From an uncultured Gammaproteobacteria bacterium (GTDB taxonomy: Bacteria; Pseudomonadota; Gammaproteobacteria; Steroidobacterales; Woeseiaceae), in NCBI GenBank assembly GCA_963752875.1, contig CAVWAH010000011.1, positions 121,761-185,760 of the forward strand: a stretch of 64,000 nt of DNA, read 5' to 3'. Both the position numbers and the translations under genes were made by a program. The stretch's first letter is position 1; each line of letters opens with the position of its first letter. The notes beneath the pieces were generated by a model. That model had not been told where the DNA came from. It saw nothing but the letters and a program-made list of their open reading frames with translations, and made no database searches. Below, in pieces: positions 1 through 9,741 of the stretch.

Positions 1-1982
1 TAGAACCCGTCTTCCACGTGGCAGCCTTCGCAGTTGTTCAGGTGTCCAGGATAGACAAAGTCGAACGTGTGCGCTGTGCCACCAGAAGGGAAGCGGAAGC
101 CACAGGCCTCATACGGTTCCTTCGTGAAGTCGGCTGCGTGCAGGGCATGAATCATGACCTTCATATCGATAGTGTTGTCGTCAGCGGTACCGAGATCAGT
201 AATGCAAGGTTCGCCACGTCGATTGATGTCCGTGGCGTTCGGCGCGTGGCACGTTACGCAGACTTCAATGCTGTCCGTGCGGTTATTGCCATGCATCGAC
301 AGTTGCTGATGACAGTCTTGGCACTTTTCGATCGCTACAGCATTGCGACGAGGTGTCGCCGTGCCGGCGCCGATCTTCGCGTAGGCGACGATGTTGGTCA
401 CAGCGATTCTCTCAATCGAACCACCAATATCGACGGCTGGATGTCCGTCCATCGTGACAGCAAGCGAATCACCGGCATTGGACGGAACCTGGACAGGCGA
501 GGTCACGCGGAACACACCGCCACCAACCGGTTGCGGATTGCCGCCGCTGCACGGTATGGCGCTTATTGAGATGCCAAGTCCGGGGTTAGTGCCAGTACCG
601 TTGTTGTGATAATCCGCCGTATCCCATGCGATTCCTACTGCAAGTCTTGCAGGACCACAATTGGTCCATTCAGGTGCGGTCAGGAGATCCCAAGGAACGC
701 CCGTGACCGGGTTGTTAACGCGGTAGTCGATAACCGGGTTGTCACCTACGTCGGTGTCTGTGATCGAAACGATTTCGAACTCAAACGCTCTTGCCGCGAT
801 CACTTCAGGAATCTCGTGCACAACCTCGACGGCGTATTGTCCGTTGAACGCCGAGGCATTCTCGCCATGGCAAACGACGCAGTCCGTGTCATCGAAGAAA
901 GTGAAGCCGCCGGGGTGCAGTGTTGCCGGATCGTTCTCGGAACCATCCCAGTCGATCCAGTCATGGCAGGCGCCGCAGGAGTCGCGATTCTGAACCGTGC
1001 GCCAGTTGCTGGCTTGCGGCAAGGAGGCGTCGGATTCCTGGTGGCAGGTCAAGCAGTTTCGAACATCCTGCGGGAATATGACGTTCGAGTAGTCATGCGT
1101 GGTGTTGTTATGCCCGACAATGAAGTAACCCTCGTCGAGGTTTATGCCGTAGTGGATCTTGTGGATCATTCGTTTCATGTCTACGGTGCCGCCCCAGGCC
1201 TCGTTGACCGTGTCGCCGTCAATGGAGTACGGGTTGTGGCAGGTCACGCAGTATTCGATATCGAAACGTGCATCCCCATGGAACTCGAGATTGTCGTGGC
1301 AGGCATTACAGGTCGCGTTGTTCGCGATGAGACGTGTATCGATCGGTGCTCCGCCTGCCGGGACAAAGTCGTACGGCGCGTTATTGGCAGGAATCGCAAC
1401 ACCAAGCACGTATACCGTCCGAATCTCGATACCCAGGCGATGTGTCTTGGTGCTGTCAAAGGCCGGACCGGCAGGGTAGGCCGTCAGGTCCTGCGCGAAC
1501 GTGTAGGTGTAGCTGCCGTCGCCGTTGTCCGTGAACGTTCCGGCGGCGCCGGACTCGGTGCTGGCCTGAGCATCAACAATGCCGGCACTGTCGCGAGTGA
1601 TGTAGGACTGCCATTCGCTGGATCCGCCATCCTGACCATTCGTCAACTGCGCCAGCGTGAAGCTGATCGTATTGGCGGGGAGGTCCCTGAGGCCGAAACC
1701 AAGGCCATCAGTCAGGACCATCGTTACAACAGGGGCGCCGCCGCCGGCCGGAACAGCAACGTTCTGGATCTCGACATTGATCTTCTCAGCTGACGTAACC
1801 GGAATCGCAGGACCTGTTGAGGTCCCCGGAGGTCCCGATGGGCCTGGTGTGCCGGGAGTTCCGTTTGAACCCGCAGGACCGGCAGGTCCGGCAGGCCCGG
1901 TTGAGCTATCGCATGCAAAGAGCAGGGCGCTGGCGAGCAGCAGTCCGGCCAATCGTGTATTGCGGCTGAATGATCGTCTCAT
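1..1982 (-). CDS. OmcA/MtrC-family multiheme (decaheme-type) c-type cytochrome lipoprotein; 3' end lies beyond window start
   Basis: Absent from the supplied ORF track because it has no stop in the window. Hand translation of the minus strand from ATG at 1982 gives MRRSFSRNTRLAGLLLASALLFAC/DSS (signal plus lipobox), then 9 G-X-Y triplets and a beta-rich segment. Heme motifs follow as CNACH, CVTCH, CLTCH, CGACH, CVVCH, a second non-heme segment, then CQDCH, CVTCH, CEGCH. Codon phase was checked at 1298 and 20, both in frame with 1982, and no stops were met. The five-heme / spacer domain / five-heme layout is that of OmcA/MtrC. Confidence 0.8.
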   Translation of the reverse strand, partial: MRRSFSRNTRLAGLLLASALLFACDSSTGPAGPAGPAGSNGTPGTPGPSGPPGTSTGPAIPVTSAEKINVEIQNVAVPAGGGAPVVTMVLTDGLGFGLRDLPANTISFTLAQLTNGQDGGSSEWQSYITRDSAGIVDAQASTESGAAGTFTDNGDGSYTYTFAQDLTAYPAGPAFDSTKTHRLGIEIRTVYVLGVAIPANNAPYDFVPAGGAPIDTRLIANNATCNACHDNLEFHGDARFDIEYCVTCHNPYSIDGDTVNEAWGGTVDMKRMIHKIHYGINLDEGYFIVGHNNTTHDYSNVIFPQDVRNCLTCHQESDASLPQASNWRTVQNRDSCGACHDWIDWDGSENDPATLHPGGFTFFDDTDCVVCHGENASAFNGQYAVEVVHEIPEVIAARAFEFEIVSITDTDVGDNPVIDYRVNNPVTGVPWDLLTAPEWTNCGPARLAVGIAWDTADYHNNGTGTNPGLGISISAIPCSGGNPQPVGGGVFRVTSPVQVPSNAGDSLAVTMDGHPAVDIGGSIERIAVTNIVAYAKIGAGTATPRRNAVAIEKCQDCHQQLSMHGNNRTDSIEVCVTCHAPNATDINRRGEPCITDLGTADDNTIDMKVMIHALHAADFTKEPYEACGFRFPSGGTAHTFDFVYPGHLNNCEGCHVEDGF

Positions 1983-2237: not shown

Positions 2238-2846
2238 GTGAAACGCCAATTTATCTTTGTTTTTTCAGTACTTATGCTGGGTCTGCCCGGTATTGCCAGC
2301 GCTGACGTCAAGGCGATGATGCAAGATTGCAACGGCTGCCACGGCGACAACGGGGTCAGCCAATCGAGCGACGTTCCGACGATCGCTGGTCTGGCCGAGT
2401 TTGTCCACATCGATGCGCTCTTTATTTACCAGGATGAGGCACGTCCCTGCGCTGAATCGAAATATCGGCAAGGCGACACCAGTCGCGCAGCAACAACGAT
2501 GTGTGCGGTTGCCGCCGAGCTTGGCGAGGATGATATCGAAGCGCTCGCAGCGGCTTACGCCGCGCTGCCCTATGTCAAAGCCACTCAGGACTTTGATGCC
2601 GCTCTGGCCGCTACTGGCAAGGGCCTGCACGACGACCAATGCGATCGCTGCCATTCCGAAGCCGGCACGCTTGCTGACGACGAAGCCGGGATGCTGGGTG
2701 GCCAGCAGATGGGTTATCTGCGGAACATGTTCGCCCAATACATGGACGGCTCCCGTGAACAGCCGAAGAAAATGAAAGAGAAAATGGACGCGTTGTCCGC
2801 AGACGACGTAGAAGCACTGGTTCACTACTACGGTAGTGTGCAATGA
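2238..2846 (+). CDS. periplasmic diheme class-I cytochrome c (c4-like)
   Basis: GTG start 5 nt after AGGAGA. Signal peptide MKRQFIFVFSVLMLGLPGIASA. Two CXXCH motifs (CNGCH, CDRCH), one in each of two similar halves. Confidence 0.8.
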   Translation: MKRQFIFVFSVLMLGLPGIASADVKAMMQDCNGCHGDNGVSQSSDVPTIAGLAEFVHIDALFIYQDEARPCAESKYRQGDTSRAATTMCAVAAELGEDDIEALAAAYAALPYVKATQDFDAALAATGKGLHDDQCDRCHSEAGTLADDEAGMLGGQQMGYLRNMFAQYMDGSREQPKKMKEKMDALSADDVEALVHYYGSVQ

Positions 2847-3217
2847 GTCAGCCTGATGCCGCCGGTAGTGATACCGGCGGCATGTTTGCCGCGATAGATG
2901 CGAAAGATGGCGCGGCATTCGTTTCCTACCTGACCGAAGATTCCGTATTCCGTTTCGGCTCTGCACTTCCCGTGCAGGGCCGTGATGCTATTCAGGCTGC
3001 CGTTGATGGCTTCTTCGGGACGATCCTGGGCTCTGCGCATGAAATCGCCAATACGTTTCAGTGCGACGATACGGTTATCTGTGAAGGTGAGGTGACCTAT
3101 CACCGGCACGACGACTCAAAGGTCACATTGCCATTCACGGATGTCCTCGAGTACAGCGGTGATCTGATCTCCCACTACAAGATCTACATCGACATCGGTC
3201 CGTTGTACGCCGAGTAG
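2843..3217 (+). CDS. SnoaL/NTF2-like fold protein (function unknown)
   Basis: 124 aa. ATGA overlap with the upstream cytochrome gene. Size and pattern are typical of SnoaL-like/NTF2 family domains. No signal peptide is visible. Confidence 0.55.
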   Translation: MSQPDAAGSDTGGMFAAIDAKDGAAFVSYLTEDSVFRFGSALPVQGRDAIQAAVDGFFGTILGSAHEIANTFQCDDTVICEGEVTYHRHDDSKVTLPFTDVLEYSGDLISHYKIYIDIGPLYAE

Positions 3218-3324: not shown

Positions 3325-6126
3325 ATGACACAGCCCACACGGCTTACTCGTATTTTATTGGCAGCTGCGGCGATCCTGTGGTTCGCGGGAAGCCCGGCTC
3401 TGGCCCAGGAAGATGAAAGGTGCCTGAAGTGTCACGACGATCCTGAGCTGACCAGCTACCGTGGAGACACGGAAATATCGGCCTATGTTACGGCTGCGAT
3501 GATCGCGGGATCTGTGCACTCCGGCGAGGCGTGCGTGGACTGCCACGGTGATCTCGCTGGAAGCAAACGCCGCAGGCACGCCGAAGACCTGGAGCCCGTC
3601 GAATGTGGCGAGTGCCACAGACGCCAGGCCAGAGCGCATGGCAACAGCCTGCACGGTGCCGCAGCTGCCGAGGGCGATCCAATGGCCCCGACCTGTGGCG
3701 ACTGCCACGGCAAGCACGACGTCCTGTCGTCCTCCAGCGCCAACGCGACAACCGCGGTGATGAATATCCCGGTGCTTTGCGGAAACTGCCACCGCGAGGG
3801 CGCTCCGGTATCGCGAACTCATGAGATTTCGCAGGAGAACATCCTCGAGAATTACTCGATGAGTATTCACGGTGAAGGTCTGTTCTCGCAGGGCCTCACC
3901 GTCACGGCTGTTTGCACCTCTTGCCACACCGCACATGACATCCTGCCGCATACCGATCCGAAATCGAGTATCCACGCCGACAATGTCGGCGAGACATGTA
4001 CCGCATGTCACGGCCTGATCGAAAACGTGCACCGCAAGGTCATCGAGGGCCATTTGTGGGCGGAAGATCCGGGCAAGATCCCTGCCTGTGTCGACTGCCA
4101 CGCCCCGCACAAGATTCGTAACGTATTTTACCCGGACGGCCTGGCCGACAAGGATTGCCTGAGCTGCCACAGTCAGCCTGACCTGTCGATGGAACGTGGT
4201 GGCAACACCATCAGCCTGTACGTCGATGAAGAAGCCTACGAAAACTCGAAGCATACAGACACTTCTTGTGCCCAATGCCACACGGACGTGACCGTCGCCG
4301 AAGAACGTGCGTGTTCAACAATACAGACGCAGGTAGATTGCAGTATTTGCCATGCTGAGCAGGTGTTGGAGTACGGCGGCAGTACACACGGAACCCTACA
4401 TGCCGAAGAAGATCCGGATGCGCCTTCCTGTCAGGATTGTCACGCCAAGCACGCGACACTTGGCCAGGATTCGCCGGCGTCGCCGACCTATGCGCTCAAT
4501 GTTCCGACGCTCTGTGGAGACTGTCATCGCGTGGGCGAGCAGGCCGCCGGCCGGATAGAGGCGAAGGTCGGTGACATAGTCGGCAGCTATGAGGATAGCG
4601 TGCACGGCCGCGGATTGATTGAGAGCGGTCTTGTTGTAACAGCGACTTGCGCCGATTGCCACGGGGCACATAACGAACTTCCGCCGGACAGCCCGAACTC
4701 CAACATTAACCCGAATAATATCGCGGGTACCTGTGGTCAATGCCATCATGGCATTGAGGAGCAGTTCCGGGAGAGCGTTCACTGGACGGACGATCCGGTC
4801 GCTGATGAAAACAAACCCACCTGCGAAGACTGTCATTCCTCGCACACCATCATGCGTACCGAACAGATTGGATTCCGCGACCTGATGATGGAACAGTGTG
4901 GCCGTTGTCATGAGGACGAGACGGAGACATTTTTCGATACATTCCACGGCAAGGTTTCGCGCCTGGGTGGTGAGGGCGTCGCCAAGTGTTACGACTGCCA
5001 TGGAACTCACGGCATCGTTGCGCCAACGGATCCCAATTCGACGCTCAGTAGGGATAATGTCGTCGAGACCTGTGGGCAGTGCCACGAGGGCTCTCACCGG
5101 CAATTCGCGGGCTACCTGACACACGCGACGCATCACGATCGCGAAAAATACCCTTGGTTGTTCTGGTCGTTCTGGGGCATGACTGCGTTGCTGGTCGGTA
5201 CACTGTCATTTGCCTTGCTGCACTCGTTCGCCTGGGTGATCCGACTCGTGCTGAATCGTGAAGAGTGGCGAGCACACAAGGCGTTGAGCCAGAGCAGAGA
5301 CCAGAAATTCTATCGCCGTTTCAGCCGACTCCAACGCACCATGCATATCATAATGATGCTCAGCTTCTTCACGCTGGCGTTGACAGGCATGGCGTTGAAA
5401 TTCTCATACATGCCCTGGGCACAGGCGGTTTCCAATTTCCTGGGCGGATTTGACAGCATGGGCTTCCAGCACCGCGTTGGAGCGTTCGGCCTGCTGATTG
5501 TTTTCATTCTGCATACCTACGACATTGTCAGCTATAAGCGAAAGACGAAGCAGACCATGTGGCAGATCATTAACGGACCGGACTCGATTATTTTCAATGG
5601 CCGTGATCTCAAGGAGTTCATCCAGTCGATCAAGTGGTTCTTTGGCATGGGCGAGCGTCCCAACTACGGCCGCTACACCTACTGGGAGAAGTTCGATTAC
5701 TTCGCGGTCGGCTGGGGTATCATCATCATCGGTACGACCGGACTCGTACTCTGGTTCCCCGAAATCTTCACACGTATTGTGCCGGGCTGGGCAGTGAATG
5801 TGGCTACGATCATTCACAGTGACGAAGCGCTGCTTGCAGTGGGTTTCATCTTCTCGATTCACTTCTTTAACACCCACTTCCGGCCCGACAAGTTCCCGAT
5901 GGATCCCGTGATATTTACTGGGCGTTTGTCTGTCGATGAGCTGAAATACGACAAGCCTGGCGAATACGAAGAGCAGGTGGAATCCGGTGAGCTGGAGAAT
6001 AACCTCGTCAGAGCGTTCCCAAGGTTCAAAGACAAGGGCGTGAGGATATTTGGCATGCTGGCGCTGACCTTCGGTCTGGTGGTGCTGGGCCTGATTGTGT
6101 ACTCGATGCTGTTCGGCTACCGTTGA
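3325..6126 (+). CDS. 19-heme c-type cytochrome fused to a C-terminal b-type cytochrome membrane domain (CbcL-like architecture)
   Basis: Signal peptide ...AGSPALAQE. 19 CXXCH motifs counted in residues ~33-590. The C-terminal ~330 aa form multiple TM helices with conserved His (RTMHIIMM, FQHRVGA, FILHTYD, TIIHSDEA, SIHFFNTHF), as in FdnI/HydC-type diheme cytochrome b. Confidence 0.85.
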   Translation: MTQPTRLTRILLAAAAILWFAGSPALAQEDERCLKCHDDPELTSYRGDTEISAYVTAAMIAGSVHSGEACVDCHGDLAGSKRRRHAEDLEPVECGECHRRQARAHGNSLHGAAAAEGDPMAPTCGDCHGKHDVLSSSSANATTAVMNIPVLCGNCHREGAPVSRTHEISQENILENYSMSIHGEGLFSQGLTVTAVCTSCHTAHDILPHTDPKSSIHADNVGETCTACHGLIENVHRKVIEGHLWAEDPGKIPACVDCHAPHKIRNVFYPDGLADKDCLSCHSQPDLSMERGGNTISLYVDEEAYENSKHTDTSCAQCHTDVTVAEERACSTIQTQVDCSICHAEQVLEYGGSTHGTLHAEEDPDAPSCQDCHAKHATLGQDSPASPTYALNVPTLCGDCHRVGEQAAGRIEAKVGDIVGSYEDSVHGRGLIESGLVVTATCADCHGAHNELPPDSPNSNINPNNIAGTCGQCHHGIEEQFRESVHWTDDPVADENKPTCEDCHSSHTIMRTEQIGFRDLMMEQCGRCHEDETETFFDTFHGKVSRLGGEGVAKCYDCHGTHGIVAPTDPNSTLSRDNVVETCGQCHEGSHRQFAGYLTHATHHDREKYPWLFWSFWGMTALLVGTLSFALLHSFAWVIRLVLNREEWRAHKALSQSRDQKFYRRFSRLQRTMHIIMMLSFFTLALTGMALKFSYMPWAQAVSNFLGGFDSMGFQHRVGAFGLLIVFILHTYDIVSYKRKTKQTMWQIINGPDSIIFNGRDLKEFIQSIKWFFGMGERPNYGRYTYWEKFDYFAVGWGIIIIGTTGLVLWFPEIFTRIVPGWAVNVATIIHSDEALLAVGFIFSIHFFNTHFRPDKFPMDPVIFTGRLSVDELKYDKPGEYEEQVESGELENNLVRAFPRFKDKGVRIFGMLALTFGLVVLGLIVYSMLFGYR

Positions 6127-6183: not shown

Positions 6184-7566
6184 GTGGCCAGGGTCTTTCA
6201 TCTTTGGCGTATTGGGGCAGGGCTTATGTTGGATTTAACCGGTCACTGGGTCGGCGCTACCGCCCTCCTGATATTTGTCCTGGCTTACCTGCTGGTCATC
6301 GTCGAGGAATTCACGCACCTCAGAAAGTCCAAGCCGGTAATCCTTGCTGCCGGCCTGATCTGGGCAATCATCGCCTATCAGTACGCTACTGCGTCCATTT
6401 CACATGCGACGGAGGAGGCCGTCCGACATTTCCTGACGGAGTTTGCCGAGCTGTTCCTCTTCCTGCTCACAGCGATGACCTACGTCAATGCGATGAGTGA
6501 GCGTCGCGTGTTCGCGGCGCTCCGGTCGTGGCTCGTAAACCATGAATTCAGCTACCGACAACTATTCTGGATTACCGGCATCCTCGCCTTTTTCCTCTCG
6601 CCCATAATTGACAACCTCACGACAGCACTGGTGATGTGTGCGGTATTGCTCGCAGTGGGAAAAGAGAGCCCGAAATTCGTCAGTATTGGTTGTGTCAATA
6701 TCGTCGTCGCGGCCAACGCAGGCGGAGCATTCAGTCCATTTGGGGACATCACGACATTGATGGTCTGGCAAAAGGGGACATTGGAATTCCAGACGTTCTT
6801 CGCACTGTTTGTTCCGTCAGTCGTCAACTACCTGGTGCCGGCAGTCGTCATGTCTTTGGCGGTGCCTAAAGCAAGCCCACAGGCGGAGACTGAGGTTGTC
6901 GAAATGCAGCGCGGTGCCAAGAGAATGATGTTTCTCTTCGGATGCACGATTGCAACGGCGGTCAGTTTTCACAACTTCCTTCACCTCCCACCATTTCTCG
7001 GCATGATGACGGGACTCGCCTATCTTCAGATCTTCGGCTACTACCTGCGAATCACACACACTGCTGAAATGGAAAATGGACCGATTCGTGGCCGACATGG
7101 AGAGATCACTGCGTTTGACAGCTTTCGAGAAATCGCGCGCGCCGAATGGGACACGCTGTTGTTCTTCTTCGGTGTGATCATGTGCGTTGGTGGCCTTGGG
7201 TTCATCGGCTACCTGGATCAATTGTCCGTTTACGCCTATTCGGAACTCGGCGCGACGGTTGCCAACATACTGGTTGGTATCGCATCCGCGATCGTGGACA
7301 ACATTCCGGTCATGGTAGCGGTACTGCAGATGTACCCCGAAATGGATGTTGCGCAATGGTTGCTGGTTACGCTAACAGCTGGCGTCGGCGGCAGCCTGCT
7401 TTCTATCGGTTCAGCCGCAGGTGTTGCCCTGATGGGTCAGGCGCGAGGTCAATACACCTTCTTTTCTCATCTGAAGTGGACGCCGGCGATTGCCGCCGGC
7501 TTCGCACTGAGTATCTGGGTGCATTTCCTGGTCAACAGCCATTACATCGGGGTGGCCCCGACGTAG
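6184..7566 (+). CDS. nhaD: Na+/H+ antiporter, NhaD/ArsB-type permease
   Basis: 460-aa polytopic membrane protein with the NhaD family pattern. The track start is GTG 6184; an in-frame ATG at 6226 (MLDLTGHW...) is an equally plausible start. Confidence 0.7.
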   Translation: MARVFHLWRIGAGLMLDLTGHWVGATALLIFVLAYLLVIVEEFTHLRKSKPVILAAGLIWAIIAYQYATASISHATEEAVRHFLTEFAELFLFLLTAMTYVNAMSERRVFAALRSWLVNHEFSYRQLFWITGILAFFLSPIIDNLTTALVMCAVLLAVGKESPKFVSIGCVNIVVAANAGGAFSPFGDITTLMVWQKGTLEFQTFFALFVPSVVNYLVPAVVMSLAVPKASPQAETEVVEMQRGAKRMMFLFGCTIATAVSFHNFLHLPPFLGMMTGLAYLQIFGYYLRITHTAEMENGPIRGRHGEITAFDSFREIARAEWDTLLFFFGVIMCVGGLGFIGYLDQLSVYAYSELGATVANILVGIASAIVDNIPVMVAVLQMYPEMDVAQWLLVTLTAGVGGSLLSIGSAAGVALMGQARGQYTFFSHLKWTPAIAAGFALSIWVHFLVNSHYIGVAPT

Positions 7567-7568
7567 GC

Positions 7569-7588
7569 CAGGCACCTTGCTGTGCCTG
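7569..7588. terminator. 7-bp stem hairpin between convergent genes
   Basis: caggcac (7569-7575), loop cttgct, gtgcctg (7582-7588). It fills the 24-nt gap between the nhaD stop and the stop of the minus-strand cytochrome gene. There is no room for a U-tract. Confidence 0.35.
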
Positions 7589-7590
7589 AC

Positions 7591-9462
7591 CTAGGTGTCT
7601 TCTTCGGGAGTCTCCTGATAGACAACCTCACCGCGTTCCTCTGCCCTTGAGAAAGGCGGCTTGCCGGTAAACCAGGTCGTATCCATCGGGTAGACCGCCG
7701 GGTCGAGCATAACGGAGTAGAAATGCCAGATGAGGATTGCAAGCGTCGCCAGGATTGCCTCGAGGAAATGCAGGACGGTAGCCGCCTCAGGAACCCATCC
7801 CGGGAGCCATGTCAGTGTAAGGTTCTCGAACCACAACACTAGTCCCGTCACCGCTGTGACGAACGTGCCCCACAACGCGGCCCAGTATTCGACCTTCTCA
7901 ACGTAGCCGACGCGCACCGGGGCCGGCGGATCGGAACGCAGCCCCAGGTTGTAGCTGGTCCGGTGGACAAACTCACTGAAATCGGCGGTCTTCGGCAGGA
8001 ACGATGCCATCTGACCCCGTGCGCGCGCGCTGATGGCGAGATGGCCGAAATGAATCAGGCAGGCTCCCATGAGACCCACTGCGGCGATACGGTGGACCAG
8101 ACCGCGAAACTCGTTGTCCCCGAACTGCAGTAATACAGCCCACCAGCTTTCCGGGTACTTCAATGCAAATCCCGTGTATACGAGCACGAAGAAACTGACG
8201 GCGGCCAAGGCGTGCACAAGCCGGAATGGTCGAGACATGCGTTCCTTGATCGAGCTTTGCTCGGGAGCCCGGCGCCGCCACAACGAATAGGTGCGCGTCT
8301 TTTTGACCAGGTCGAGCAGGTTGTGCAGCAGCATGCCGATGACGGTGACCCAAATCAGGGGAATGTAGATTTTCCTGATCCAGTAGGCGACGACGTTGGA
8401 GGTCTCGTCGGCAATCGTGTGTACAGGACCGATCGCAAACCGGGTTCCCGCTCCGGCATGGCATTGTCCGCAGGTCTCTGCCAGGTTATCTGTGTGGGTG
8501 TGTGAATCGGGGTCGGTCGACGGCAGAATGTTGTGCACGCCGTGGCAGCTTGCGCAATTGGCGACACGCTGTGAACCGCCGCGTGCGGCCAGTCCGTGGA
8601 AGCTCTCGCCATAGGACGGAACCTGGTCCACAGGCAGGCCGTATTTTTCGCTGAGCTTGAGGTCTGAGTGGCAGGGACCGCAAACCTGGATCGGGACGTT
8701 GCTGGCCGAAACGGGCGATCCTGGAGCCGCGATCGCTAAAATCCGATGCTCGCCATGACAATCTGTGCACACCGGTGATTCGTATACGCCGGCGGCCGCT
8801 GCCATCCCGTGAATGCTGCGACCGAACTGCCTGGTGATCTTACGGTGGCAATCCCCGCACGTGTCAGGCACGTTCATGCGATGAATAGAGGAGGTCGGGT
8901 CAGAGGCGGGCAACGGCGAGTGGGCCGAATGGCAGTCGCTGCAACCGGGTCCCGGATCATGATCGTGAACGGCTTGCGCGTGCACGCTGGCCGTGTAGGC
9001 CGCGATCGGGCGAATAGTCGCCACGTTTCGATCCGCCGGCGGTTCCTTACCATGACATGCGCCGCAAGTTTCACCTTGGGATAATGAAGAAACCGGGGAT
9101 GACTCATCGGTGTACGACGTCATGGTGTGGGTTTCGCCATGGCAATCCGCACAGGTCGGCAATATCGGGTCAGGGAATTTCTGCGGGCCGAGCTCGCCGT
9201 GCGCGCTAGTGGATTGCTCCTCGACTACATCATCGTGGCAGGATCCGCAGTCGACGGGATCGAGTCCGCGCCTGTGCCGGCGCTGGTCGGCACCGACATG
9301 GCAGTCGAGGCATTCCGTCGTGCCGTGGACCGTAAGCTCGAATTGCGCGAGGTCGGTTTCGTGGCAATCGAGGCAGGGATTTACCTGTTCGGTGTCGCTC
9401 GCTTGTAATGTGAGCGGCATACAGGCAAGGAGAAGGGTGAAGCTGGCGATGAACTTGTGCAC
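7591..9462 (-). CDS. 11-heme c-type cytochrome fused to a C-terminal b-type cytochrome membrane domain (CbcL-like architecture)
   Basis: Signal peptide MHKFIASFTLLLACMPLTLQA. 11 CXXCH motifs. The C-terminal TM domain carries conserved His (RLVHALAA, LVHRIAA, CLIHFGH, TVLHFLEA, LIWHFYS) and aligns by eye with the C-terminal domain of the 3325-6126 protein. Confidence 0.85.
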   Translation of the reverse strand: MHKFIASFTLLLACMPLTLQASDTEQVNPCLDCHETDLAQFELTVHGTTECLDCHVGADQRRHRRGLDPVDCGSCHDDVVEEQSTSAHGELGPQKFPDPILPTCADCHGETHTMTSYTDESSPVSSLSQGETCGACHGKEPPADRNVATIRPIAAYTASVHAQAVHDHDPGPGCSDCHSAHSPLPASDPTSSIHRMNVPDTCGDCHRKITRQFGRSIHGMAAAAGVYESPVCTDCHGEHRILAIAAPGSPVSASNVPIQVCGPCHSDLKLSEKYGLPVDQVPSYGESFHGLAARGGSQRVANCASCHGVHNILPSTDPDSHTHTDNLAETCGQCHAGAGTRFAIGPVHTIADETSNVVAYWIRKIYIPLIWVTVIGMLLHNLLDLVKKTRTYSLWRRRAPEQSSIKERMSRPFRLVHALAAVSFFVLVYTGFALKYPESWWAVLLQFGDNEFRGLVHRIAAVGLMGACLIHFGHLAISARARGQMASFLPKTADFSEFVHRTSYNLGLRSDPPAPVRVGYVEKVEYWAALWGTFVTAVTGLVLWFENLTLTWLPGWVPEAATVLHFLEAILATLAILIWHFYSVMLDPAVYPMDTTWFTGKPPFSRAEERGEVVYQETPEEDT

Positions 9463-9741
9463 TGAGATGCCCGGTGTTCCAGAATGTTCTGGCGTTAGGA
9501 ACGCTTGGCCATATTATGGGCCCCATTCGTCGATATCCCAACACCTTGAAACTGCGAGAAATACGGATTTCCGTGCTGCTCCTACGTAGTCTAATATCGC
9601 ACTCGCTACGACCAACTAAAATACTCTGAGTGTTGCTCAGTTGGGGACAATAAGAGCGTTCAAGCGAGAACTGACGGCAGACTTGCCAGGACAATAAATA
9701 TCAGGCATCCCCCGGTCATTGATCGGAACTTGAGGAACACC

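Follow-up and report, generated by a model that had tools for sequence, protein, structure and literature searches.

The first 1,982 nucleotides of the window, by which we mean the whole 64,000-nucleotide stretch analysed here (C11:121761-185760, where C11 is contig CAVWAH010000011.1), carry on their minus strand the N-terminal 660 of the 756 residues of MtrC, a decaheme lipoprotein of the OmcA/MtrC family (nt 1-1982; TIGR03507, Foldseek). The source is a metagenome-assembled genome (MAG; 2.83 Mb, 38 contigs, 83% complete) of an uncultured marine-sediment gammaproteobacterium of the Woeseiaceae. Beside its lipid anchor, this MtrC bears nine uninterrupted collagen-like G-X-Y triplets (GPAGPAGPAGSNGTPGTPGPSGPPGTS, nt 1818-1898, minus strand), and comparison with orthologs indicates that glycine at every third residue is under purifying selection at the protein level. 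We propose, with moderate confidence, that the protein is an MtrCAB-type MtrC delivered to the cell surface through a type II secretion system (T2SS) and held there on an extended, length-selected spacer of polyproline-II or collagen type, the Asp/Ser/Gly-rich start of which would serve as a sorting motif. Its surface routing, the extended shape of the tether and the tether's function as a spacer are inferred from the sequences.

Read in the direction of translation (nt 1898-1818), the tract comprises three GPA triplets followed by GSN, two GTP, GPS, GPP and GTS, exactly the position and count claimed in an earlier note on this DNA. The remainder of the tether (TGPAIPVTSAEK, nt 1782-1817, minus strand) leads to the first beta-strand of domain I. 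When the 34-residue tether was shuffled 100,000 times, no shuffle reached nine consecutive triplets and the maximum was seven. We then took the 120 best homologs (54-92% identity), 106 of which have an intact lipobox. Every one of these 106 carries between 6 and 11 triplets (10 in 69, 9 in 17 and 11 in 15), with a mode of 10 and 101 of 106 within the range of 9-11, and the tract begins one residue past the cysteine in 100 of them. The window protein has nine triplets and not ten because serine replaces the glycine at +3, a position that is glycine in at least 90% of its relatives. Proline makes up 53% of X residues and 26% of Y residues. Among 80 loci from named genomes, nearly all Woeseiaceae or Steroidobacteraceae MAGs together with three cultured Lentisalinibacter species, the tract is kept beside mtrAB in 77 of the 78 with intact N-termini. 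The three cultured species (Lentisalinibacter salinarum X77, L. sediminis C23 and L. orientalis YNA5901; loci L055, L057 and L060) share the operon and have tethers of eight triplets. The earlier note had regarded absence or variability of the tract in near-identical strains as the mark of a linker with no structural role; conservation in all of the close homologs and in all but one of these loci points the other way.

Selection on the protein is best seen in the codons. Across 68 orthologs (58-92% identity), glycines G31, G34, G37, G49 and G52 never change and conservation of G28, G40, G46 and G55 is at least 90%, and in a set of 76 orthologs all four glycine codons (GGC, GGA, GGT and GGG) are used at every glycine position while the X and Y positions vary, with entropy up to 2.6 bits. 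The use of four codons for a fixed glycine amid drifting neighbours argues that selection acts on the protein. These data bear on an alternative in which the tether is a flexible low-complexity linker whose period-3 glycine is a slippage by-product of a 9-bp DNA repeat and has no structural role. Such a repeat exists under the three GPA triplets, which form a 9-bp tandem repeat of 3.6 copies (86% match, nt 1869-1900); family-wide, triplets number from 0 to 23, and linkers of other kinds, rich in Gly, Pro or acidic residues, occur in about 35% of representatives; AlphaFold2 (AF2) gives coil; and one ortholog, L078, is without the tract. The DNA repeat, however, covers only 3.6 of the nine units, the rest of the tract holding none; 9-11 triplets persist in almost all homologs even at a divergence down to 54% identity; same-composition shuffles never gave the observed run; and the four-codon usage speaks for selection on the protein. 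We therefore consider a structureless linker very unlikely, and DNA slippage as the sole source of the periodicity is ruled out by the four-codon use of glycine and a repeat of only 3.6 units. Linkers of Gram-negative lipoproteins are likewise low-complexity stretches between lipid and fold but, unlike the Woeseiaceae tether, have no fixed periodicity; El Rayes et al. (2021) reportedly proposed a role in sorting and reach for such disordered N-terminal linkers.

That the tract belongs to an MtrC follows from the profile, the heme motifs, the fold and the operon. The earlier note had placed the real gene on the minus strand, cut by the window edge, with only antisense shadows on the other strand, and this proved correct: the minus-strand frame is open from the edge up to ATG 1988 or ATG 1982, whereas no plus-strand open reading frame (ORF) in nt 1-2013 had a Pfam match, and these ORFs were dismissed as shadows for want of a family match. 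Translation from ATG 1988, the first ATG, would give 758 residues and from ATG 1982 756 residues; because a ribosome-binding site (RBS), AAGGGG, lies 7 nt ahead of ATG 1982 and homolog alignments begin at that methionine, we take nt 1982 as the likely start, which makes the lipidated residue Cys24 (Cys26 from ATG 1988). The full gene, recovered from the contig as the note had proposed, occupies C11:121472-123748, with 289 nt outside the window, and encodes ten CXXCH motifs, eight of them within the window; hemes 9 and 10 belong to the final 96 residues, which are encoded beyond the window edge at C11:121472-121760.

The TIGR03507 profile scores 401.1 bits on the window part and 461.9 bits on the full-length protein against a cut-off of 209.3, which bears out the earlier assignment to the OmcA/MtrC-family decahemes. 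The ten CXXCH motifs fall into two blocks of five (residues 227, 247, 312, 338 and 370, then 556, 577, 653, 696 and 734, in 758-residue numbering). All heme-motif Cys and His residues are invariant in the 68 orthologs, as is the lipobox cysteine C26, and the Pfam models for MtrC/MtrF domain II/IV and the OmcA N-terminal domain also match. The predicted lipoprotein signal peptide (MRRSFSRNTRLAGLLLASALLFA, nt 1914-1982, minus strand) has a basic n-region and a hydrophobic h-region, ends in the lipobox L-F-A-C (nt 1911-1922) and agrees with a PROSITE-like lipobox rule. We modelled MtrC as a single chain in AF2 with 68 homologs as input (mean predicted local distance difference test, pLDDT, 79.5) and obtained the order beta, pentaheme, beta, pentaheme. 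On the minus strand, domain I, beta-rich and OmcA-like, spans nt 1365-1781 (PF22112 and PF22111; AF2 strands at residues 70-208); pentaheme domain II, with CXXCH 227-370, spans nt 792-1319 (PF22113, 128.5 bits); beta-rich domain III spans nt 375-782 (AF2 strands at residues 403-538); and pentaheme domain IV begins at nt 332 and runs to nt 1, with CXXCH 556, 577 and 653 inside the window and 696 and 734 outside it. Foldseek returned 16 significant Protein Data Bank (PDB) matches, every one an OmcA, UndA, MtrC or MtrF (E 4e-28 to 8e-13), with template modelling (TM) scores of 0.53-0.70 across 15 full-length entries. Shewanella MtrC, MtrF, OmcA and UndA (PDB 4LM8, 6QYC, 3PMQ, 4LMH and 3UCP) thus share with the Woeseiaceae protein the family profile, ten CXXCH motifs, the four-domain fold and the lipobox, at 18-24% identity in structural alignment.

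Directly downstream on the same strand lie mtrA, encoding a DmsE/MtrA-family decaheme (TIGR03508, 285 bits), and mtrB, encoding an MtrB/PioB barrel (TIGR03509, 407 bits). The order mtrC-mtrA-mtrB is kept in every named locus with enough flank and is likewise that of the Shewanella mtrCAB operon, and mtrCAB in benthic Woeseiaceae has been published previously (PMC12175321). From profile, fold and gene order, we identify the gene product as the MtrC subunit of a canonical MtrCAB conduit for electrons in the outer membrane.

The residue after the lipidated cysteine (TGC, nt 1913-1911) is aspartate (GAT, nt 1910-1908; the pair at nt 1908-1913, minus strand), which in E. coli would signal retention in the inner membrane. 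The earlier note had offered two ways out: either the E. coli +2 rule does not apply in this organism, or this decaheme is tethered differently from Shewanella MtrC. The first is favoured. The 106 close homologs have Ser (40), Asp (39) or Glu (23) at +2, more distant ones have Ser, Gly, Ala or Glu, and across the named loci Asp, Ser, Glu, Gly, Thr and Ala all occur; in this genome the two lipidated membrane-fusion proteins of the resistance-nodulation-division (RND) type have Gln and Gly. Nothing points to the second, as the tether is merely longer than that of Shewanella. Surface lipoproteins that depend on the T2SS in A. baumannii, B. pseudomallei and S. oneidensis require GspN and have, at P2'-P8', motifs rich in Gly/Ser or in Asn/Asp, the form in S. 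oneidensis and B. pseudomallei being a Gly/Asp hybrid; Asp at P2' of PulA blocks Lol capture, and retention signals vary among species, including those outside the Enterobacteriaceae (PMC12802150). The MtrC of the window starts D-S-S-T-G-P-A at P2'-P8', and orthologs start D-G-S-T-G-P-A, S-G-D-T-G-P-A or E-G-D-D-G-A-A. Since C-D-S-S-T-G, C-D-G-S-T-G, C-S-G-D-T-G and C-E-G-D-D-G all fit the published motif, we take Asp at +2 to be one of the residues tolerated in a surface-sorting stretch and probably no sign of retention in the inner membrane. Klebsiella PulA, Acinetobacter InvL and Shewanella MtrC and OmcA share with Woeseiaceae MtrC a lipobox followed by a Gly/Ser/Asp-rich stretch, and PulA shares the Asp at P2' as well; the published motif spans P2'-P8' only, whereas the Woeseiaceae periodic tract extends over about 30 residues. 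The genome encodes GspD (559.8 bits), GspE (681.1 bits) and GspN (PF01203, 106.9 bits), all above their cut-offs, together with LolC and LolE.

Two other readings of the aspartate were weighed against this one. As a working Lol-avoidance signal like that of Klebsiella PulA, it would keep MtrC in the inner membrane until extraction by the T2SS, by a route unlike that of orthologs with Ser at +2. Asp at +2 is indeed rare (6 of 171 lipoprotein candidates of the genome), the other bearers are degradative enzymes typical of T2SS cargo, and LolC, LolE and a T2SS are present; but same-operon orthologs carry Ser or Glu at the position as well as Asp, the RND adaptors, expected to be inner-membrane lipoproteins, lack Asp, and retention signals differ outside the Enterobacteriaceae (PMC12802150). 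We regard PulA-like avoidance as the less likely reading, though a possible one for the Asp-bearing clade. Permanent retention, which would turn the protein into a periplasmic-side decaheme and leave no surface MtrC, draws on the E. coli rule alone and is scarcely credible, given that the gene is the first of an mtrC-mtrA-mtrB operon that all related loci keep, that orthologs have Ser at +2, that the benchmark inner-membrane lipoproteins of this genome are without Asp, and that a T2SS with GspN is present. Asp at +2 outside the enterobacteria should accordingly not be read as inner-membrane retention. The Asp-bearing enzymes include an S8 subtilase, an M19 dipeptidase, a GH17-like protein and an amidohydrolase (C14:22098-24038, C20:150353-151501, C11:14053-15141 and C5:20348-21394); such degradative enzymes are a cargo type often exported by T2SS, a hint that Asp at +2 possibly marks surface or secreted lipoproteins here. 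Glu at +2 was dropped as a sorting mark because it also occurs on a YiaD-type OmpA-like outer-membrane lipoprotein and on solute-binding proteins, and a search of the MAG for a NodT-type outer-membrane lipoprotein as a benchmark found no member above the cut-off.

Taken together, the favoured reading runs as follows. MtrC would be exported by Sec, have its hemes attached and then be lipidated on Cys24, after which the T2SS would move the lipidated protein to the cell surface, the Asp/Ser/Gly-rich residues after the cysteine acting as a sorting motif of the T2SS/GspN type for surface lipoproteins. The tether, built around 9-10 Pro-rich triplets, would form an extended polyproline-II or collagen-type spacer of ~8-10 nm, leashing MtrC to the outer leaflet yet letting it rise through the lipopolysaccharide (LPS) layer, and the leashed MtrC would dock onto MtrAB and make contact with minerals or with partner cytochromes. 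By calculation, ~30 residues span ~8.6 nm as a collagen helix and ~9.3 nm as polyproline II. From the cysteine to domain I, the tether measures 43 residues here and 36-43 in orthologs (mean 40.4, s.d. 2.0). In Shewanella, MtrC is secreted by the T2SS, its lipid anchor is dispensable for MtrAB binding and is thought to hold MtrC in two-dimensional diffusion (PMC8415449), and MtrC and OmcA diffuse on the cell surface (PMC9171617).

Several observations weigh against this reading. AF2 renders tether residues 25-58 as low-confidence coil (pLDDT <50). A single polyproline-II chain needs no glycine at every third residue, so a single-chain spacer explains the strict periodicity only in part. Pfam Collagen (PF01391) scores the tract, which is shorter than the 20-triplet model, at 17.0 bits against a gathering score of 27.2, and membership of that family was therefore dropped. 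The lipobox rule behind the census of +2 residues is crude, only two proteins serve as inner-membrane benchmarks, and the MAG is itself only 83% complete. Finally, ortholog L078 adjoins mtrAB though it has no tract, which implies that the tract is dispensable. This gammaproteobacterial locus (CAVOFV010000008.1, match 7001-9669), next to mtrA and mtrB, has the tether SPDDRDAGAAAPGSGSGPSIPPVG and offers a natural comparison case.

The periodicity that a single chain leaves partly unexplained is what a true collagen triple helix demands. On that account, three lipid-anchored chains would zip up from membrane-aligned N-termini into a rigid stalk of ~8.6 nm carrying three cytochromes; the chains would all be MtrC, or MtrC combined with other lipoprotein cytochromes that have G-X-Y tracts. 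Uninterrupted period-3 glycine is the defining packing requirement of the triple helix and precisely what is conserved while X and Y drift; proline content is high; tracts of 17-23 triplets, as long as is usual for bacterial collagens, occur in some family members; and the same module stands on several other lipoprotein cytochromes of the genome. Lipid tails stabilise short collagen peptides, as in the peptide-amphiphiles of Fields and Tirrell, and sediment temperatures are low. The Pro-free (GAS)n tract of Bucl8, an outer-membrane lipoprotein, is triple-helical by circular dichroism (PMC7682875). Set against this, a run of 9-10 triplets without hydroxyproline is short, no trimerisation domain is recognisable in MtrC, where domain I follows directly on the tract, and Pfam Collagen scores the tract below its threshold. 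Even (Pro-Pro-Gly)10, which is richer in proline than the MtrC tract, melts near room temperature. The paralogous lipoproteins differ in length, with 5-9 triplets, which argues against mixed helices; the sole 2OG-Fe(II) oxygenase of the genome is unlinked and without an export signal; and Shewanella MtrCAB is a 1:1:1 complex (PMC8415449). A prolyl hydroxylase was accordingly rejected, the only PF13640 protein (C5:81962-82234, minus strand, 54.6 bits) having no export signal and lying apart from any G-X-Y gene. The lipid anchor could align the chains in place of a trimerisation domain; all told, we find the triple helix doubtful. Its bolder form is unlikely: on MtrC and on other surface multiheme lipoproteins, lipid-nucleated mini-collagens would bundle three cytochromes on each rigid ~9 nm stalk, and Shewanella MtrC, MtrF and OmcA would retain a vestige of this arrangement in their short period-3 glycine tethers. 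If true, such trimeric 'cytochrome bouquets' on the outer face of these sediment bacteria would represent a new way to organise proteins of extracellular electron transfer and would give bacterial collagen a new role.

Known bacterial collagens help to place the tract. Streptococcus Scl1 and Scl2 and Bacillus BclA are surface collagen-like proteins with tens of triplets. Burkholderia Bucl8 (PMC7682875) is closer, being also a Gram-negative outer-membrane lipoprotein with uninterrupted G-X-Y repeats at the surface, though its tract is longer, with a mode of 20 repeats. The tracts of Bucl8, Scl and BclA are joined to a trimeric barrel or trimerisation domain, whereas that of MtrC has 9-10 triplets placed directly on the lipid anchor, no known trimeriser and a sub-threshold Pfam Collagen score.

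We next followed the tract beyond close relatives. A search of the wider family gave 2,536 representative hits, of which the best 150 (34-61% identity) were examined; 126 of these have a lipobox, and at least five triplets stand beside the cysteine in 82 of the 126 (~65%), at least eight in 53 and 18-23 in six, the remaining distant representatives among the best 150 having poly-Gly, Pro-rich or acidic linkers. The earlier note had not associated such a spacer with characterised MtrC or OmcA proteins, and this holds in part. PDB SEQRES records give C-G-GSD-GNN-GND-GSD-GGE for Shewanella MtrC and C-G-GSD-GDD-GSP-GEP-GKP for MtrF, each with about five period-3 glycine triplets; the Woeseiaceae version is longer and Pro-rich. 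The Woeseiaceae tether is thus a longer, Pro-rich version of a family trait: ~40 residues against ~22 in Shewanella, 9-10 Pro-rich collagen-like triplets against five rich in Asp, Asn and Ser, and Asp in place of Gly at +2.

Within the genome, a six-frame scan found five further ORFs with a lipobox, an acidic or Thr residue and a period-3 glycine tract: three octaheme cytochromes, one DUF7151/DUF4397 protein and the N-terminus of a frameshifted OmcA/MtrC-like gene. One octaheme is of the OTR family (PF11783) and two have CarboxypepD_reg domains; with the DUF7151/DUF4397 lipoprotein, they lie at C11:88469-90142 (minus), C21:118333-120114 (plus), C38:52286-54757 (minus) and C1:51789-53414 (plus), and all begin with a lipobox, Glu or Thr and then 5-8 triplets, mostly of a Pro-poor G-A-D type. 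The second OmcA/MtrC-like gene (C21:115664-117967, plus strand; TIGR03507, 108 bits) has a lipobox, nine G-X-Y triplets and an extra CXXCH but is interrupted by an in-frame TAA at 116180 and apparent frameshifts, and appears to be either a pseudogene or an assembly error. Among the 171 lipoprotein candidates, tracts of at least five triplets occur in three of four multiheme proteins and in two of the 167 others (Fisher p = 5e-5); MtrA, the remaining multiheme candidate, probably carries an ordinary signal peptide.

The OTR-type cytochromes show the same pattern on their own. A lipobox is present in 119 of 120 homologs of the OTR-family octaheme, and 116 of the 119 carry at least six triplets (mode 8), mostly G-A-D and with only 6% proline at Y. 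Because these tracts are Pro-poor, the feature conserved across families is the periodicity of glycine beside the lipid and not proline. After the tract, 115 of the 119 OTR-type lipoproteins (P0274-P0393) have an Asp/Asn-rich Cys-bracketed loop, CWDLNNNGxGDPxEDINGDGVVDVYDC, which recurs in several distant MtrC-family representatives and, in this genome, at C11:88469-90142 and C21:118333-120114; it resembles a calcium-binding loop and might set the register of the tract or cap it.

The protein family, the mtrCAB operon and its presence in Woeseiaceae are already known. New are the tract in a porin-linked context, its tight length control, the codon-level evidence of selection, the connection with the short tethers of Shewanella, the occurrence of the same module on OTR-type cytochromes and the reading of Asp at +2 against the T2SS sorting motif. 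The searchable literature yielded no collagen-like tether on MtrC or other multiheme cytochromes, matches to 'collagen-like' being unrelated, and the words collagen, glycine, lipoprotein and N-terminal are all absent from Baker et al. 2022. MtrC-type cytochromes are the cell's contact point with minerals or electrodes, and their attachment, orientation and freedom of movement on the surface influence both the rate of electron transfer and the long-range conduction that arises from collisions between cytochromes. For the Woeseiaceae, a globally abundant sediment family, the tether is a selected element of fixed length and not a throw-away linker, and a period-3 glycine tether is common to unrelated surface cytochromes and, in reduced form, to the Shewanella model proteins. 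A tether twice as long as that of Shewanella would give the leashed cytochrome a wider reach or raise it through a thicker layer of LPS or capsule. Three ideas become testable: that tether length and stiffness tune extracellular electron transfer, that short lipid-anchored collagen-like tracts trimerise, and that the residues after the cysteine form a T2SS/GspN sorting code beyond the few pathogens studied.

Upstream of mtrC, a divergent intergenic region (nt 1983-2237) holds the AAGGGG RBS; a scan of this region for a sigma-70 consensus promoter and a terminator found neither. Beyond it on the plus strand lie a gene for a PdsA-like periplasmic diheme cytochrome (nt 2238-2846), whose NF049874 score of 182 bits is below the exception cut-off of 330 but which is syntenic in most related loci; a SnoaL-like gene (nt 2843-3217, PF12680), syntenic with pdsA in most of them; and a gene for a 933-residue multiheme cytochrome fused to a cytochrome-b membrane domain (nt 3325-6126), syntenic in many. 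The divergent pdsA cluster accompanies mtrCAB in most of the named loci. The fusion protein is the probable quinol-oxidising entry point of the pathway; Shewanella uses CymA, whereas the Woeseiaceae partners are the PdsA-like diheme and this long cytochrome c/b fusion.

Downstream, just past mtrB and nearby in many related loci, lies a gene for an FKBP-type peptidyl-prolyl isomerase (C11:117826-118362; L001:11826-12362 in locus coordinates, minus strand). We considered it as a periplasmic foldase for the Pro-rich tether and rejected it: the protein, from its likely start (MTQAKSGDTV...), has no signal peptide, is SlyD/FkpB-like and sits beside hypE and hypF, and is probably a SlyD-like, hydrogenase-related protein and no Mtr accessory. 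The crude lipobox rule also flagged mtrA (L001:14516-15472, minus strand) at …LVAIAC/TGVVVAQAADEE, probably a false positive, an ordinary signal-peptidase-I site after AQA being more likely.

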